Positions 1-4,469 of a stretch of DNA of 4,469 bases are shown in pieces. Position 1 is the first letter of the stretch. Every line of letters begins with the position of its first letter. The notes beneath the pieces are model-generated. The model did no database searches. It had not been told where the DNA came from and saw only the letters and a list, made by a program, of their open reading frames with translations. Origin of the DNA: a virus (Duplodnaviria > Heunggongvirae > Uroviricota > Caudoviricetes); the IMG/VR virus record IMGVR_UViG_2675903650_000020, positions 1 through 4,469 of that record; one strand, 5' to 3'. A program made the position numbers and the translations under genes.

Positions 1-122
1 GCATCACCTGATGAATAAATGTCATAGTTTATTACCGTTATGGTTGACAATGAGAACTGTTTTCATTTAAAAGACCGATATACGAAAGCATCTTTTCTTT
101 ACATTCTCCATTGGGATTACCT

Positions 123-159
123 CCGCCAGCTTCCATTCCTGCCGCTGGCGGCTTTTTTT
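123..159 (+). terminator. Terminator-like hairpin on the + strand: 8-bp GC-rich stem (CCGCCAGC 123-130 / GCTGGCGG 144-151), 13-nt loop, then T7 (153-159)
   Basis: Perfect inverted repeat followed directly by TTTTTTT on the + strand. On the minus strand the same hairpin is preceded by A7 and has no U tract after it, so it is only an intrinsic terminator in the + orientation. It abuts the nanS-p stop codon (161-163). Confidence 0.4.
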
Positions 160-160
160 A

Positions 161-2122
161 TCATGCCGCGGCATCCGCGTTGTTCACTTCCACCTTCACA
201 CTGTCAATCAGCAGCGTATATGTCGCCGCCTTTAATATGCCTGTCAGTTGCAGTTTGTCCGCCGCCCCTGATGCCGGAGATTTCACCAGTGTGAACGGCG
301 TCCCCCGTTTCTCATCCAGTACCGGCGTCACCTGAATGCTGTTGTTTCCGGCAAACTCAAAAGCCAGTGTGTGCCATCCGTTATCAAAGACCCCGAACGT
401 ATCCAGCTTCGCATTCGGCTTCTTGTGGTACATCGCGTTCAGGTTCGTCGCATCCGTCTGCAGGAAGAAGGACATCAGCATGTCGTTGCCTTCCTCTGCC
501 AGCGTCACTCCCTCCGGCAGGGACGACAACTGCCAGTAAATGCCCATGGCAAACCGATTCGGCACCAGTGAACCCGGCAACTTAAACCGTACGCTCACAC
601 GTCCCCCCTTCTTCAGTAACTCCACTCCCTGTCCGGCTGCATCATGCTCCAGAAACCAGATGTGGTTTTCCGGTTTATTCAGTTGCAGGGCCTTACCTCC
701 CGTAGCCCCCGCATCACTGACCACCGCTTCAGCAATGTTTTTGTTAACATTGTCTCCGCTCGCCGGTTTGTGATAATAGCGCCAGCCCTGTGATGCCAGG
801 TCTTCGCCGGACGCCAGCAGACTCATCAGGGTTCGGTTACTGACCGGGGCTTCCGGCTCTCTCTCCGTACCTTCACCGGAAGGTCCGGTGGGCTTCACCG
901 TATCAGGCTGTTTTCCGGTAATGAATTCAGCGGTTCTCCCGGCATGCACAAGAATCGCCGTTGCCAGACGGTCGGAAATAATCCCACGACGTGCCCATGA
1001 TCCAAAATGCGTTTTACGGTCGGCCGTCGTCCAGGTTTTGGCGTCCGTTCGACCACCGGCTCCGTAATACCCAATATCCGCAACATCCGGATCTTCTGAC
1101 GGCTCGTTGGTACCCACATTTCGCCCGTTTTCATCCGTCATAAACGGCACAAAGAAGATTTTTTTTGCGGATTTCGTCTTGTATGCACCATACACCGCAT
1201 CGTATTGCGAAGAATAAGTCTGCTTCCAGTAGTAGGTCGTGTCGCCACAAATCCAGGGAACCGATGACGGAGAGCCCCCGAGACACTGACCTCCGAATTC
1301 CGACAGGTCAGAACGATATTTTTCCACCATGGAATCAAACAGCCCCGGCTGAGTGGCGTATGCACCCTGTTTCAAATCAAACTCGCCCTGCATCCAGACC
1401 ACTGCAAGCAGAATATTTTTAGGGTTGGCCTTCAGTGCGGCCTGAGTACGGGTAAGCAGGTCCTTGTACAGTGGCTTATCTACACCCCAACGTGCCGAGG
1501 TCTCGCTTGCGCCGGTGGATTCGCTGAAGGTACCTTCATCGCCCGCCAAAAATGCAGAACCACCACGGCAGCACGGAACCAGAAGAATACCGGCATTCGC
1601 CGGAATAAACGGCAACAATTTCTTCGCGATATGTAATCCCTGCCCCACGCATCCATACTGAGCTGCGCTGGCTTTCGGGTGTGAAAACTTACTCAAATCC
1701 TGAACATCATGCAGGCAGTGGTCCGCAGGAATAATGTCATTGTAGTTACAGGACGCACCACCCGGCGTGACAGTGCTGCGACGCGCCAGCTGTTTAATAC
1801 GCGGGTCCGGACGGTCATATGTCTCCGGCAGCGGAAGCCCTTCACCATACGCCATACCGTTTGACTGCCCGGCCAGGGCAACAACAAAGTAATACTCCGG
1901 TTCGCTGGTGGTGCTGATAACTGTGCCTTCTCCATCCGACGGCTTCACCACCACAGGTGTGGTGACATCACCTTCCGCCGCAATGGCCTGCATCAGGGTA
2001 TAGGGCGTGATGGCCACCGGACTGCCAAATGGCTGCCACCCCTCCTTCAGTTTTTGTGTCAGTCGTTTCGCAAGGTCTGACGGCGATGCCGCCCTGACAA
2101 CATCATAGTGTTTAAATGCCAT
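161..2122 (-). CDS. nanS: Prophage NanS-p-type sialate (9-O-acetyl-neuraminate) O-acetylesterase: DUF1737-like N-terminus, SGNH/SASA esterase core, C-terminal putative carbohydrate-binding domain
   Basis: Long ORF with TGA stop at 161-163. N-terminal segment KHYDVVRAASPSDLAKRLTQKLKEGWQPFGSPVAITPY matches what I recall of DUF1737. Catalytic-serine block FVVALAGQSNGMAYGEG (GQSN) is typical of SGNH/SASA sialate O-acetylesterases. A Pro/Glu-rich linker (PTGPSGEGTEREPEAP) is followed by a ~230-residue C-terminal domain. The track ORF starts at ATG 2137 (MVERTMAFK...); I prefer ATG 2122 (MAFKHYD...) because GGTGGAAAG lies 4-9 nt upstream, whereas 2137 has no SD. Confidence 0.85.
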   Translation of the reverse strand: MAFKHYDVVRAASPSDLAKRLTQKLKEGWQPFGSPVAITPYTLMQAIAAEGDVTTPVVVKPSDGEGTVISTTSEPEYYFVVALAGQSNGMAYGEGLPLPETYDRPDPRIKQLARRSTVTPGGASCNYNDIIPADHCLHDVQDLSKFSHPKASAAQYGCVGQGLHIAKKLLPFIPANAGILLVPCCRGGSAFLAGDEGTFSESTGASETSARWGVDKPLYKDLLTRTQAALKANPKNILLAVVWMQGEFDLKQGAYATQPGLFDSMVEKYRSDLSEFGGQCLGGSPSSVPWICGDTTYYWKQTYSSQYDAVYGAYKTKSAKKIFFVPFMTDENGRNVGTNEPSEDPDVADIGYYGAGGRTDAKTWTTADRKTHFGSWARRGIISDRLATAILVHAGRTAEFITGKQPDTVKPTGPSGEGTEREPEAPVSNRTLMSLLASGEDLASQGWRYYHKPASGDNVNKNIAEAVVSDAGATGGKALQLNKPENHIWFLEHDAAGQGVELLKKGGRVSVRFKLPGSLVPNRFAMGIYWQLSSLPEGVTLAEEGNDMLMSFFLQTDATNLNAMYHKKPNAKLDTFGVFDNGWHTLAFEFAGNNSIQVTPVLDEKRGTPFTLVKSPASGAADKLQLTGILKAATYTLLIDSVKVEVNNADAAA

Positions 2123-2315
2123 GGTTCTTTCCACCATCTGAAAAATAATTCTTTAAAATACCTGACATGTAATACAGAAAAAACACAAAACCATACCTTA
2201 AATAAAAACCTCATCATCAAGCAGATATGCATGGGTAAACTACAAGACGAGATATAAACCACCCTGCATTTAAATAAACAATAAACAACATCAGAAAAAT
2301 AATTCTGCTCTATGG

Positions 2316-2342
2316 TTTACATTCAAAAATATCATTTATACT
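2316..2342 (+). promoter_or_regulatory. Candidate sigma70-type promoter for the 111-codon ORF (-35 TTTACA 2316-2321, -10 TATACT 2337-2342)
   Basis: Both hexamers match consensus at 5 of 6 positions, but the spacer is only 15 nt (suboptimal). Located about 40 nt upstream of ATG 2383. Purely a sequence-pattern call. Confidence 0.25.
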
Positions 2343-2382
2343 TTTCAGAACATCACCAGCAAGACATAAACAAGGAAACTAA

Positions 2383-2718
2383 ATGAAGTGGATTGTGATT
2401 GATACAGTTATCCAGCCATCATGCGGAATATCTTTTTCAGTCATATGGAGTAAAATAAAATTAATAATCTGGTATCAATCGGATGCTTTCTTACCTCCTG
2501 AAAGTATATTTACACTGACTCACACAGGTATCATGCTCAATAACAAAGTGCTACCTGTAACCATTTACAACGTAGTACCATTCAATAAAACATTCTGGAA
2601 TTTAATCAAAAACAGCCAGGAATGCCCTACAAATACAGATAACGTATTGAATGAATGCTTTAATAACCGTTGCACTCTGCAAATATGTCCTTATGGACTA
2701 AAACAACAAAGTCCATAA
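2383..2718 (+). CDS. Hypothetical small protein (111 aa), opposite strand to the phage late genes, inside the AT-rich insert; function unknown
   Basis: ATG 2383 is preceded by AAGGAA (2372-2377) with 5-nt spacing. 111 open codons in strongly AT-rich DNA, where stop codons should be frequent. The ORF ends inside a perfect 12-bp hairpin (2688-2721). I recognise no homolog. The protein is Ile/Asn-rich with 6 Cys. Confidence 0.45.
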
Positions 2719-2721
2719 GGA
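2688..2721 (+). other. Perfect 12-bp inverted repeat (TCCTTATGGACT / AGTCCATAAGGA) with 10-nt loop, spanning the stop codon of the 111-codon ORF
   Basis: Arms at 2688-2699 and 2710-2721 are exact reverse complements. The following + strand sequence GTTTACTCA is only weakly U-rich, so this is either a weak terminator or an RNA-stability or regulatory hairpin. Confidence 0.3.
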
Positions 2722-2734
2722 GTTTACTCACATC

Positions 2735-2773
2735 TGACAAAATCAATATAAACAGCCCCTCCGGAGAGGGGCT
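2735..2773 (-). terminator. Second minus-strand hairpin (8-bp stem AGCCCCTC/GAGGGGCT, 4-nt loop) followed by a moderately U-rich tract
   Basis: Perfect GC-rich stem 2754-2761 / 2766-2773. On the minus strand it is followed by GUUUAUAUUGAUUUUG (2753-2738). The U tract is interrupted, so it is weaker than the terminator at 2970-2995. Confidence 0.35.
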
Positions 2774-2969
2774 GGAGAGTGGCGCTATGTGCCATTGCAT
2801 GGTGCCGGGTGCCTCCCGGTGAATTCAGTACCAGCACCTGAATCCGCGATTATCCCATATACCTACTCGCTGATTGCCCCTCCGCACAGGGGGATTCACC
2901 ATGCCAGTTTCTTTTAACAAATTCCCCGCAAAACAGACAACTGTCAACCGTCTGAATTGTGAGACATTT

Positions 2970-2995
2970 AAAAAAAAGGCCCGCCGAAGCGAGCC
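2970..2995 (-). terminator. Rho-independent terminator downstream of the tRNA array (minus-strand RNA: GGCUCGC-UUCG-GCGGGCC + U8)
   Basis: Stem 2978-2984 / 2989-2995 has 6 pairs and one internal mismatch, with a UUCG tetraloop. It is followed on the minus strand by eight U (+ strand A-run 2970-2977). It lies 12 nt past the 3' end of the last tRNA. Confidence 0.7.
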
Positions 2996-3007
2996 TGATA
3001 ATAAATC

Positions 3008-3082
3008 TGGAGCGGGTAGCAGGAATCGAACCCGCATCATCAGACTGGAAGGCTGAGGTAATAGCCATTATACGGTACCCGC
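3008..3082 (-). tRNA. tRNA-Gly (anticodon UCC)-like, 75 nt, encoded CCA
   Basis: Manual fold of the reverse complement gives a 7-bp acceptor stem GCGGGTA/TACCCGC, T-arm GCGGG-TTCGATT-CCTGC, anticodon loop CTTCCAG (UCC), discriminator U and CCA. It closely resembles host glyT as I recall it, with a compensatory acceptor change and a C:U mismatch at the 31:39 closing pair. Confidence 0.8.
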
Positions 3083-3085
3083 ATA

Positions 3086-3161
3086 TGGTGCCGGCTACCG
3101 GAATCGAACTGGCGACCTGATGATTACAAGTCAGTTGCTCTACCATTGGAGCTAAACCAGC
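3086..3161 (-). tRNA. tRNA-Thr (anticodon UGU)-like, 76 nt, structurally degenerate (possible pseudo-tRNA)
   Basis: Acceptor stem GCTGGTT/AGCCGGC (two G.U pairs), D-arm GCTC-CAATGGTA-GAGC, anticodon loop CTTGTAA (UGU), variable loop AGGTC, T-loop TTCGATT, discriminator A and CCA. The overall layout aligns with E. coli tRNA-Thr, but the anticodon stem (ACTGA/TCATC) pairs at only 3 of 5 positions and the T-stem has one A:C mismatch. Confidence 0.6.
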
Positions 3162-3166
3162 ATGTT

Positions 3167-3241
3167 TGGCGGGACAGCGTGGACTCGAACCACGATAAGA
3201 AGGTTAACAGCCTTCCGTAATGACCTTTATACGACTGACCC
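3167..3241 (-). tRNA. tRNA-Asn (anticodon GUU)-like, 75 nt, encoded CCA
   Basis: Perfect anticodon stem GAAGG/CCTTC with loop CTGTTAA (GUU), T-arm CGTGG-TTCGAGT-CCACG, discriminator G and CCA, U8 present. The T-loop, anticodon loop and discriminator all match host tRNA-Asn as I recall it. The acceptor stem GGGTCAG/CTGTCCC has one U:U mismatch at 4:68. Confidence 0.8.
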
Positions 3242-3289
3242 AAATAAAAAAAGCCACCGTTGCAACTTAAGAGTCACTAACGGCAGCTT

Positions 3290-3326
3290 ATGCCAATAGT
3301 GTTGCTCATTTGCTCAATGATGTCAA
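3290..3326 (-). promoter_or_regulatory. Candidate late promoter (pR'-equivalent) between Q and the tRNA array; perfect -35 TTGACA at 3326..3321 (minus strand), -10 element unclear
   Basis: The Q stop codon to first tRNA gap is only about 90 nt and contains a consensus TTGACA. The best -10 candidates 17-20 nt downstream (AACACT / ACTATT) are weak. The position matches where lambdoid phages place pR' and the Q-utilisation site, which is established knowledge rather than something read from this sequence. Confidence 0.3.
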
Positions 3327-3332
3327 CACGTT

Positions 3333-3821
3333 CTATGCTACATGTTTAATTTTCTCTACACGTTTCCGGTTTTTAAACGCACTATCCAGAACCGGGTAAA
3401 TCATAAACAACGAGGCATTAAGGATTTCGTCAACTTCCCGTCGACAGGTTGCGAGCGATGGTTTTTGAATGCGCCCGCCGCCCCGGCATAACATCTTGCG
3501 AGGTCTTGCGACGCGATGATAGTAAGATGCAATAGCGTGCCTGGAAGAACCATGAGCGTAGTAGCTGAGGAGGATGCCGAAGGCTTTCTTGTCAATGTAC
3601 ATGACGGAATCGACGACCTGAGAAATCAACATTCCATCATCATCATTGCACATTGGTCTTGTCATAACTCTTCCCGGCTCTACGCTCTCCATGAACTTCG
3701 CTATTACGCTGCTCATGCGCTTTTCCAGACGACCTGAATAAACCCATGCGCCCCACAGTTCAAGCCAGCCATTCAGCCAATCGTGCTGTTCTTTGGTGAG
3801 GTTTAGTTCTCTTATGCCCAT
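3333..3821 (-). CDS. Q: Phage late-gene antitermination protein Q (Q21/QuuD-like family)
   Basis: 162-aa ORF with SD AGGGAG 7 nt upstream of ATG 3821. Motifs LELWGAW, SSVIAKF, TRPMCNDDDGMLI and LLSYYAHG parallel those I recall in DLP12 QuuD (LERWGAW, SSIAAGF, SRPQCCDDDAMII, LLVDYYVVG). Its position immediately downstream of ninG and upstream of the tRNAs and late genes fits the lambdoid layout. Confidence 0.85.
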   Translation of the reverse strand: MGIRELNLTKEQHDWLNGWLELWGAWVYSGRLEKRMSSVIAKFMESVEPGRVMTRPMCNDDDGMLISQVVDSVMYIDKKAFGILLSYYAHGSSRHAIASYYHRVARPRKMLCRGGGRIQKPSLATCRREVDEILNASLFMIYPVLDSAFKNRKRVEKIKHVA

Positions 3822-3864
3822 GCGACTTCTCCCTTGTTATCTGGAATGGTTTTTACTGAGAGCG

Positions 3865-4443
3865 TCATGTGGCCTCACTTCTGCTGTTTCTCAGATCTTT
3901 GAGTTTCTGTTGGTACTCTGCCTTGATGGCCCTGCACTCTTCGACAGTCCAGCGATGGCGGTTATGGTTTGATTCGATTTCATCTACTGCTTCCTGCCCG
4001 ATGCGGCTAATCAGTTCGACGCGATACGGAACGAGATTTCCGCTTTTGTGCTGGTTGCACACCACGCATTGCTTGTGAATATTGCGTTCATCAAATCGGA
4101 GTTGAGGTGCCGCAGCAGTTGTCCGGTAATGCCCGGCATCCCACTGAGCAGACGTGAGCGTTCCGCACGAGATACATGGTAAGTCGCGGTCTCTTTCTCT
4201 GATGAAGGCGTTTACGGCTTGTTGGGCTTGTTTAATCCAGTAACTGCGGGGCTTTAAGGCGAGTTTTCGAATCTTAAGTTTATCTTTCTGTTTCTGCTCC
4301 TCTCGTCGTCGTTTCTTCTCTGCTGCTTTTTCCGCTTTTTCTCGTTCTTTGCTTCGTCGTTCGAGTGCTAATTGAGTTCCGTGTTCCGGGCAGCACCACC
4401 ACTGATTTGAGAATGCCGGGTGAAACCATTCCTTGCATATTTG
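3865..4443 (-). CDS. ninG: NinG/Rap-family protein, C-terminal ~190 codons; the reading frame meets an in-frame TGA at 4444-4446 and has no canonical start codon before codon ~127, so the gene is N-terminally disrupted or continues beyond the window
   Basis: Translation of the minus strand gives ...[188 protein letters not shown], which is near-identical to what I recall of lambda NinG. The 66-aa track ORF 3865..4065 is just the part after the first in-frame GTG. Confidence 0.8.
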
Positions 4444-4469
4444 TCAACGACGGATGAAAAGTGATCCAC

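Follow-up and report, generated by a model that had tools for sequence, protein, structure and literature searches.

A recombinant prophage tRNA-Thr(UGU) gene with a two-nucleotide change in its anticodon stem: a candidate for escape from the P2 nuclease Old

The DNA analysed here, called the window, is a stretch of 4,469 nucleotides (positions 1 to 4,469 of IMG/VR record IMGVR_UViG_2675903650_000020, a virus of the Caudoviricetes) whose minus strand carries three transfer RNA (tRNA) genes in the order Asn-Thr-Gly. The cluster is placed at the head of the predicted Q-dependent late transcript of a phage 21-like lambdoid prophage, because the 110 bases that separate the Q gene from tRNA-Asn are 98% identical to the annotated phage 21 pR', Q-binding element, start site and tR'. 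The subject of this work is the middle gene, window 3086-3161 on the minus strand, a 76-nt tRNA-Thr with anticodon UGU and an encoded CCA end. An initial annotation had described it as structurally degenerate, and as either a decaying pseudo-tRNA between intact neighbours or a tRNA with a non-canonical anticodon arm. Here tRNA position p corresponds to window position 3162 - p (Table 1), and the minus strand reads, by structural element, GCUGGUU UA GCUC CAAUGGUA GAGC A ACUGA CUUGUAA UCAUC AGGUC GCCAG UUCGAUU CCGGU AGCCGGC A CCA.

The Rfam tRNA model (RF00005, gathering threshold 29 bits) aligns to this element over its full length (model positions 1-71 of 71, Infernal) with 49.0 bits and E = 1.3e-8. 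The covariance score, named in the initial annotation as a check, is thus high, but the fold is not fully canonical. The acceptor stem is paired at all seven positions, two of them being the G.U pairs first reported (U3.G70 and U6.G67), the D stem is paired at 4/4 and the T stem at four of five, with G53-C61 present and the reported A:C mismatch located at A52.C62. The first reading of the anticodon stem as paired at only three of five positions was also right: U29-A41, G30-C40 and A31-U39 are standard pairs, A27.C43 and C28.U42 are unpaired, and Infernal flags precisely these two as non-canonical. The 5-bp anticodon stem of a canonical elongator tRNA is accordingly not formed, and the loop is a normal 7-mer. 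U8, A14, G18G19, U33, A37, A73, the CCA end and the T-loop UUCGA are all kept. The identity elements of threonyl-tRNA synthetase are G1-C72, C2-G71, G35 and U36; all are present, which makes the tRNA a candidate substrate of this enzyme. A tRNA identical to that of the window is annotated as tRNA-Thr in phage JLK-2012 (GenBank), the closest complete phage. The cluster is further carried by 13 complete Escherichia coli genomes, in seven of which the annotation pipeline PGAP calls the tRNA-Thr, the fetched copies being identical to the window; the other six are O55:H7 genomes in which the copy has U68 in place of C68 as its sole difference and is left unannotated. At the level of sequence, these features show window 3086-3161 to be a genuine tRNA-Thr(UGU) gene.

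Gapless alignments reveal a mosaic. Positions 1-26 match the tRNA-Thr of phage 21 and P22-type phages at every base, whereas positions 27-76 are those of thrU, a chromosomal gene of E. coli, except for G42U, U43C, A49G and U68C. The last base specific to the 21 type is position 17 and the first specific to thrU is position 27, which leaves GGUAGAGCA as the interval of the crossover. The downstream flank matches modules of the 683R6/SW07164 type, in which a thrU-identical tRNA-Thr is followed by a glyT-like tRNA-Gly. These alignments show the tRNA-Thr to be a recombinant, in which the 5' 26 nt of 21 type were joined to 3' 50 nt derived from thrU by a crossover in the D-arm. A separate viral Asn-Thr-Gly chimera (L016, 1279-1512) shares the D-arm junction and combines it with a thrU anticodon stem of wild type and another tRNA-Gly allele, which indicates that crossovers at this spot within the tRNA-Thr gene have happened more than once. 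A common prophage Thr-Gly module (L007 2503-2656; L008 2503-2656; L006 603-962) consists of near-exact copies of thrU and glyT separated by a 3-nt UAU spacer, and looks like a captured, tyrU-less piece of the host operon thrU-tyrU-glyT-thrT-tufB.

Parentage explains two of the three features that had appeared degenerate. The A52.C62 mismatch is inherited from the host: chromosomal thrU has it, as do 16 of 17 distinct alleles. Behind the acceptor G.U pairs lie two parents that differ by transitions, one of which supplied the 5' strand GCUGGUU and the other the thrU-type 3' strand AGUCGGC; in each of the 17 distinct alleles examined, 100% of the acceptor positions pair. The U68 sister allele has three wobble pairs, one of which U68C returns to G-C; U68 and C68 score 47.0 and 49.0 bits, with cloverleaf energies of -8.7 and -14.3 kcal/mol, respectively. 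Within the family RF00005 gives 73.8 bits for thrU, 63.6 for thrU with the 42-43 change alone, 61.5 for the phage 21 type and 58.6 for the intact chimera, so that the change at 42-43 by itself costs about 10 bits and chimerism by itself about 15, and the two together yield the score of the window.

Table 1. Features of the tRNA cluster and its surroundings in the window
Feature	Position	Strand	Basis or remark
Q antiterminator gene, phage 21 type, 162 aa	3333..3821	-	
Late promoter region pR'-QBE-tR' (QBE, Q-binding element)	3242..3326	-	mapped from annotated phage 21 OL657228; -35 3326-3321; QBE 3318-3303; -10 3303-3298; start site 3291; tR' terminator 3289-3242
tRNA-Asn(GUU)	3167..3241	-	identical to that of phage 21; ARAGORN and Rfam
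Mosaic tRNA-Thr(UGU), 76 nt, encoded CCA	3086..3161	-	RF00005; annotation in JLK-2012 and by PGAP; gapless alignment to thrU and phage 21 tRNA-Thr
21-type segment, tRNA 1-26 (5' acceptor strand GCUGGUU, D-arm)	3136..3161	-	identity runs upstream through spacer, tRNA-Asn and pR'/tR'
Crossover interval GGUAGAGCA, tRNA 18-26	3136..3144	-	common to both parents
thrU-derived segment, tRNA 27-76	3086..3135	-	identity runs downstream through UAU spacer and tRNA-Gly
Anticodon UGU (34-36), reads ACA	3126..3128	-	loop CUUGUAA same as in thrU
G42U/U43C dinucleotide ('TCATC' allele)	3119..3120	-	breaks 28-42 and 27-43; 3' CNG motif C40-A41-G42 becomes C-A-U
C68, restores G5-C68	3094..3094	-	O55:H7 CB9615-type sister has U68 (G5.U68)
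tRNA-Gly(UCC), glyT-derived, with C8, G38, U39 (C31.U39) and U63	3008..3082	-	ARAGORN and Rfam
Intrinsic terminator, hairpin and U-run, right after tRNA-Gly	2977..2996	-	

Both anticodon-stem mismatches trace to one dinucleotide change, GU to UC at 42-43, hereafter the UC allele. In IMG/VR, 28 contigs carry the pentamer UCAUC at 39-43, 12 of them without the 21-type 5' half, and the allele lies on at least nine distinct backgrounds (one otherwise identical to thrU, several D- and T-loop variants and two chimeric forms). One phage in GenBank has it, and among species-representative genomes it is sparse, with Escherichia albertii and two metagenome-assembled contigs as the only carriers. Exhaustive IMG/VR scans recovered just two non-wild-type states at 42-43, UC (28 loci) and CC (two loci on two backgrounds), and no single-step intermediate among thrU-derived tRNAs; other recurrent variation in the family is limited to the neutral positions 16, 20 and 59 or to changes that preserve a wobble pair. 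This distribution shows UC to be a shared allele already circulating in thrU-derived prophage tRNAs, and not the product of private decay. A template switch at a quasi-palindrome was considered by hand as the origin of GU to UC and set aside, since it fits U43C (G35-C43 in the 29-35/43-49 hairpin) and does not fit G42U.

The same comparisons bear on the proposal of a decaying pseudo-tRNA, in which the crossover left ill-matched acceptor strands, and a transcript with a broken anticodon stem misfolds and is neither processed, charged nor used. We regard this as decidedly unlikely. It would account for the silence of ARAGORN, which calls only tRNA-Asn and tRNA-Gly in the window, for the omission of the U68 sister allele by PGAP, for the fall in score from thrU to the window and for the energetics of the RNA, whose canonical anticodon stem, worth -4.3 kcal/mol in thrU, drops to about 0 with UC, and whose minimum-energy fold is not a cloverleaf (nearest-neighbour energies, here and below, which leave aside modifications and tertiary structure). 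Folding had been proposed as a check in the initial annotation, but genuine thrU, which has the A52.C62 mismatch as well, also has a non-cloverleaf minimum-energy fold, so that as a test of function it is uninformative. The miss by ARAGORN was likewise rejected as evidence of a pseudogene, since the program calls the UC allele in every thrU background, calls the intact chimera too, and fails only on the combination. Decay is also at odds with a score well over the threshold and over that of the adjoining tRNA-Gly, with the retention of the universal and tertiary nucleotides, the CCA end and the identity positions, and with the conservation of UC across backgrounds.

A comparison with related prophage copies, likewise suggested at the outset, points the same way. 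Among 22 chimeric UC copies no site varies in tRNA-Asn and a single one does in tRNA-Thr (position 68, where the change improves a pair and so preserves structure), as against about seven in tRNA-Gly. The changes accumulated by tRNA-Gly in this lineage comprise five that break structure (U8C, G10A, G39U, G53C and U66C), one that leaves a wobble pair (C63U) and a fixed change in the loop (A38G). Were the five damaging events spread at random over three genes of equal length, the chance of all five falling in one named gene would be about 0.004, and about 0.03 when the comparison is with tRNA-Thr alone. The gene that, from its sequence, looks to be decaying is thus tRNA-Gly and not tRNA-Thr. Nor can the neighbours be called intact, as had been assumed: tRNA-Gly scores 45.9 bits, less than tRNA-Thr and well short of the 63-65 of related copies, with C8 in place of the near-universal U8, C31.U39, G51.U63 and G38, and tRNA-Asn has the mismatches U4.U69 and U13.U22, yet is invariant in 23 of 23 chimeric-cluster copies.

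Two further observations concern the glycine tRNAs. In tRNA-Gly(UCC) a CNG motif is paired (CAG/CUG), and depletion of this tRNA has been reported under the P2 nuclease Old considered below; decay and nuclease-driven change are inseparable here. Elsewhere, beside a UC tRNA-Thr, lies a glyT-derived tRNA (L031, 2795-2866, minus strand) in which C35A creates the anticodon UAC, so that it is called as tRNA-Val, and which has G38 and has lost 1 nt from the 3' acceptor strand; Val(UAC) is among the Old-depleted tRNAs listed in bioRxiv 10.64898/2026.07.10.737580.

A third account of the broken stem takes up the alternative CTGA/TCAG pairing noticed at the outset, which does exist in the RNA as C28-G45, U29-A44, G30-C43 and A31-U42, and would make the gene a frameshift suppressor or other recoding tRNA with a shifted stem and a 10-nt anticodon loop. 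The energies favour it, the shifted 4-bp helix having -2.7 kcal/mol, an advantage of 2.9 kcal/mol over the canonical 3-bp stem. In frameshift suppressors such as sufJ the anticodon loop contains one nucleotide more than usual. In the window, nothing has been inserted: thrU and the window tRNA-Thr align without a gap and have the same 7-nt loop, CUUGUAA, and the variable loop AGGUC has the standard five nucleotides. The CC allele breaks A31-U42 and with it the shifted helix, the partner columns are invariant, which gives no sign of selection for that helix, and A44 and G45 would have to leave the tertiary core, as judged from general tRNA architecture. An expanded-loop suppressor is on this evidence hardly credible. 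What stands of the proposed non-canonical arm is the broad idea of a working tRNA whose anticodon arm is atypical, the reason for which would be a shortened stem and an altered CNG motif, and not an expanded loop.

Such a shortened stem has a precedent in work on Old, the Toprim nuclease of phage P2. In host tRNA-ThrU the enzyme cleaves the paired motif C28-U29-G30/C40-A41-G42 after C28 and after C40, which disables translation; thrU is the preferred substrate, and its overexpression gives no rescue (Govande et al., Nucleic Acids Research 2025, PMC12445682). Phage tRNA-Thr(UGU) species, that of phage 21 included, rescue cells from Old through resistance to cutting, a resistance that requires both an alteration of the CNG motif and loss of the 27-43 pair; G30C/C40G alone, U43A alone and C28U/G42A alone are not protective (PMC12445682). 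In a second study Thr(UGU) of host sequence gave no rescue, the versions of T4, Bas32, Bas33 and HK446 did, and the list of five tRNAs depleted more than 2-fold under Old began with Thr(UGU) and Gly(UCC) (bioRxiv 10.64898/2026.07.10.737580). The residue numbering of PMC12445682 agrees with the thrU sequence used here, and no instance of the UC allele was found in that paper's main text.

In its sequence, the window tRNA-Thr fits this published rule. It has the UGU anticodon and A37 and is phage-encoded in a lambdoid late operon. Its 3' motif CAG has become CAU through G42U, with C28 left unpaired, and the 5' CUG is kept, so that the CNG alteration is partial, as it is in published rescue tRNAs; the stem is shortened by U43C, which leaves A27.C43, with 28-42 lost as well. 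Both published resistance factors are supplied because a single dinucleotide change hits both in an arm that is otherwise of host type. In the mechanism we propose, G42U would destroy the 3' motif and unpair C28 and U43C would remove 27-43, making the tRNA a poor substrate for Old; expressed late from the prophage, it would withstand Old and allow ACA codons to be read even as the host tRNA is being destroyed. Gam is a trigger of Old, and JLK-2012 encodes gam together with exo and bet. Taken in full, the reading of UC as an Old-escape allele, kept since its tRNA would be a poor Old substrate that still decodes ACA, seems to us evenly poised between right and wrong. More tentatively, and with some doubt, UC and CC may be minimal two-nucleotide natural escape variants of thrU, selected in lambdoid prophages because they would abolish cutting by P2 Old-type Toprim nucleases without loss of ACA decoding, and the Thr-Gly module may be a captured piece of the host thrU-tyrU-glyT-thrT operon that serves against Old and has been shuffled by crossovers within tRNA genes.

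Several points weigh against escape from Old. The 5' CUG motif and the cytosine of the first cleavage site are intact in the window allele, and the published mutants that work altered the 30-40 pair and not position 42 alone (PMC12445682). The allele is rare, occurring in 30 of 5,426 complete E. coli genomes and in about 5 of 115 thrU-derived viral copies (roughly 4-5%, in a sample that is roughly unbiased), and the host-type, Old-sensitive anticodon arm is kept in 109 of about 115 of these viral copies. Its spread over many backgrounds could reflect one origin followed by recombination, without selection. In unmodified RNA the competing hairpins 28-31/42-45 and 29-35/43-49 beat the canonical stem, the stability of which UC removes; the second of these is already the minimum-energy fold of thrU and is strengthened in the UC allele, and decoding by the tRNA may consequently be poor. 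C68 may have been imported by recombination, as an allele with G5-C68 exists in the thrU family, and need not be a compensatory mutation. The damage in the adjoining tRNA-Gly implies that constraint on the module is not uniformly strong. To these must be added the calls missed by the annotation tools, namely the window tRNA-Thr by ARAGORN and both the U68 sister allele and a UC allele with G24A by PGAP.

Many of these points would be expected if 42-43 were simply a tolerated site, UC being a neutral to mildly harmful (hypomorphic) variant, redundant with host thrU and spread by drift and recombination, with no evasion of a nuclease. The minority status of UC among prophage copies that mostly equal the host gene agrees with this, as do the damaging singletons seen in wild-type and UC backgrounds, the damaged tRNA-Gly of the module and the demonstrably frequent recombination inside tRNA genes. 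It explains less readily why UC is the sole recurrent pair-breaking variant in the family and falls exactly on the two published Old determinants, why single-step intermediates are missing, and why CC again leaves both pairs broken. Independent lineages of phage Thr(UGU) break 27-43 too. We consider a neutral variant unlikely, though by no means negligible. Among such lineages, a set of metagenomic phage tRNA-Thr(UGU) genes (L161 548-623, L166 372-447, L164, L165 and L162) are unrelated to thrU outside the arm ACUGA-CUUGUAA-UCAG and have A43 or G43, so that the 27-43 pair is broken again (A27.A43 or A27.G43), at the same position as by U43A of the published Old-resistant tRNA-Thr6.

The proposed Old-escape allele was compared with known systems. 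A close counterpart is the tRNA-Thr of phage 21, tRNA-Thr21 (Govande et al., PMC12445682), found also in Sf6, BTP1, HK446 and Kapi1 (P22-like). The window shares with it the locus order (21-type Q with pR'/tR', tRNA-Asn, tRNA-Thr), tRNA positions 1-26 and the whole of the upstream DNA, as well as the UGU anticodon and a stem shortened by a 27.43 mismatch; tRNA-Thr21 has been shown to resist cleavage and to protect against Old. The window tRNA-Thr, thrU-derived from position 27 on, differs in the arm itself, ACUGA/UCAUC against GUCGC/GCGAA, and in the variable loop, T-arm and 3' acceptor strand; it retains C28 and the cleavage site U36AAUC|A41 of the nuclease AriB, neither of which tRNA-Thr21 has, and leaves two pairs unpaired where tRNA-Thr21 leaves one. 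From thrU and its exact prophage copies (e.g. vB_EcoS-683R6) it takes positions 27-76 bar 42, 43, 49 and 68, with the same anticodon loop and A52.C62, but its 5' 26 nt belong to the other lineage and G42U/U43C removes two stem pairs and the 3' CNG motif. It resembles tRNA-Thr6, which is 12 nt from thrU, and the tRNAs of Bas32, T4 and HK446 in being a phage-encoded UGU isoacceptor close to thrU, resistance of the tRNA-Thr6 type mapping to the anticodon arm (PMC12445682; bioRxiv 10.64898/2026.07.10.737580). However, tRNA-Thr6 combines G30C/C40G with U43A and keeps all pairs except 27-43, whereas the window combines G42U with U43C, loses two pairs and leaves the middle pair untouched.

A further parallel is offered by the tRNA-Lys, tRNA-Thr and tRNA-Asn of phage T5, which neutralize AriB of the PARIS system as viral tRNAs substituted at a Toprim cut site that replace the cleaved host tRNAs; AriB targets Thr(UGU) and Asn(GUU), cutting between 40 and 41, and resistance maps to 39 and 41 (PMC11464382, PMC12409363). 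Unlike the T5 variants, the window tRNA-Thr is unchanged at 39 and 41; escape from PARIS was rejected at the level of the site (U36-A-A-U39-C40-A41) and is not predicted. Only the window tRNA-Asn differs there: its position 39 is C, against U39 in the AriB site of E. coli tRNA-Asn. Neither strand of the anticodon stem of the window tRNA-Asn, GAAGG/CCUUC, contains the CNG motif. HepS of Gifsy-1 also targets Thr tRNAs.

A current reinterpretation casts phage tRNAs as counter-defences against immune nucleases that cut tRNA, and this locus offers a natural test of a rule for escape from Old that has so far been based on a few engineered and library tRNAs. It comes with built-in control alleles, wild-type, UC and CC, chimeric and non-chimeric. 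Should the allele prove sensitive to Old or non-functional, the finding would be that of an ordinary recombinant prophage tRNA. More generally, 'degenerate' features dropped by gene finders can be host quirks, recombination scars or adaptive escape changes, and annotation pipelines may systematically under-call tRNAs that matter in conflicts over phage defence.

Gaps in RefSeq locus tags fall exactly at UC tRNAs that have one further weakening change (L158 1484-1559, M19, with G24A; L003 1630-1705, CB9615, with U68), which suggests that the pipeline filtered out weakened UC tRNAs. In two other clusters with the UC allele (L032, 10454-10527, minus strand; L037, 3220-3293, plus strand) ARAGORN calls a 'tRNA-???' whose anticodon (cg) has two bases and whose anticodon loop is abnormal; at the gathering threshold, the Rfam tRNA model has no match at either of these two positions.

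Around the cluster, strain UTME-3 (L004 983-1495) has an HNH endonuclease gene between Q and tRNA-Asn, upstream of the same tRNAs. A partial match to TarB in the Rfam scan of the window corresponds to the hairpin of the terminator that follows tRNA-Gly. Codon usage shows no evident enrichment of ACA in the two open reading frames (ORFs) considered, with 8 of 48 Thr codons in a 658-aa ORF (161-2137), whose relatives are annotated as SASA-family esterases, and one of three in Q. Between the cluster terminator and this ORF lies a full-length match to the small RNA family STnc100 (RF02076; 2744-2933, minus strand; 136 bits, E = 5e-31), a family that is also found near the tRNA clusters of L032 and L037.

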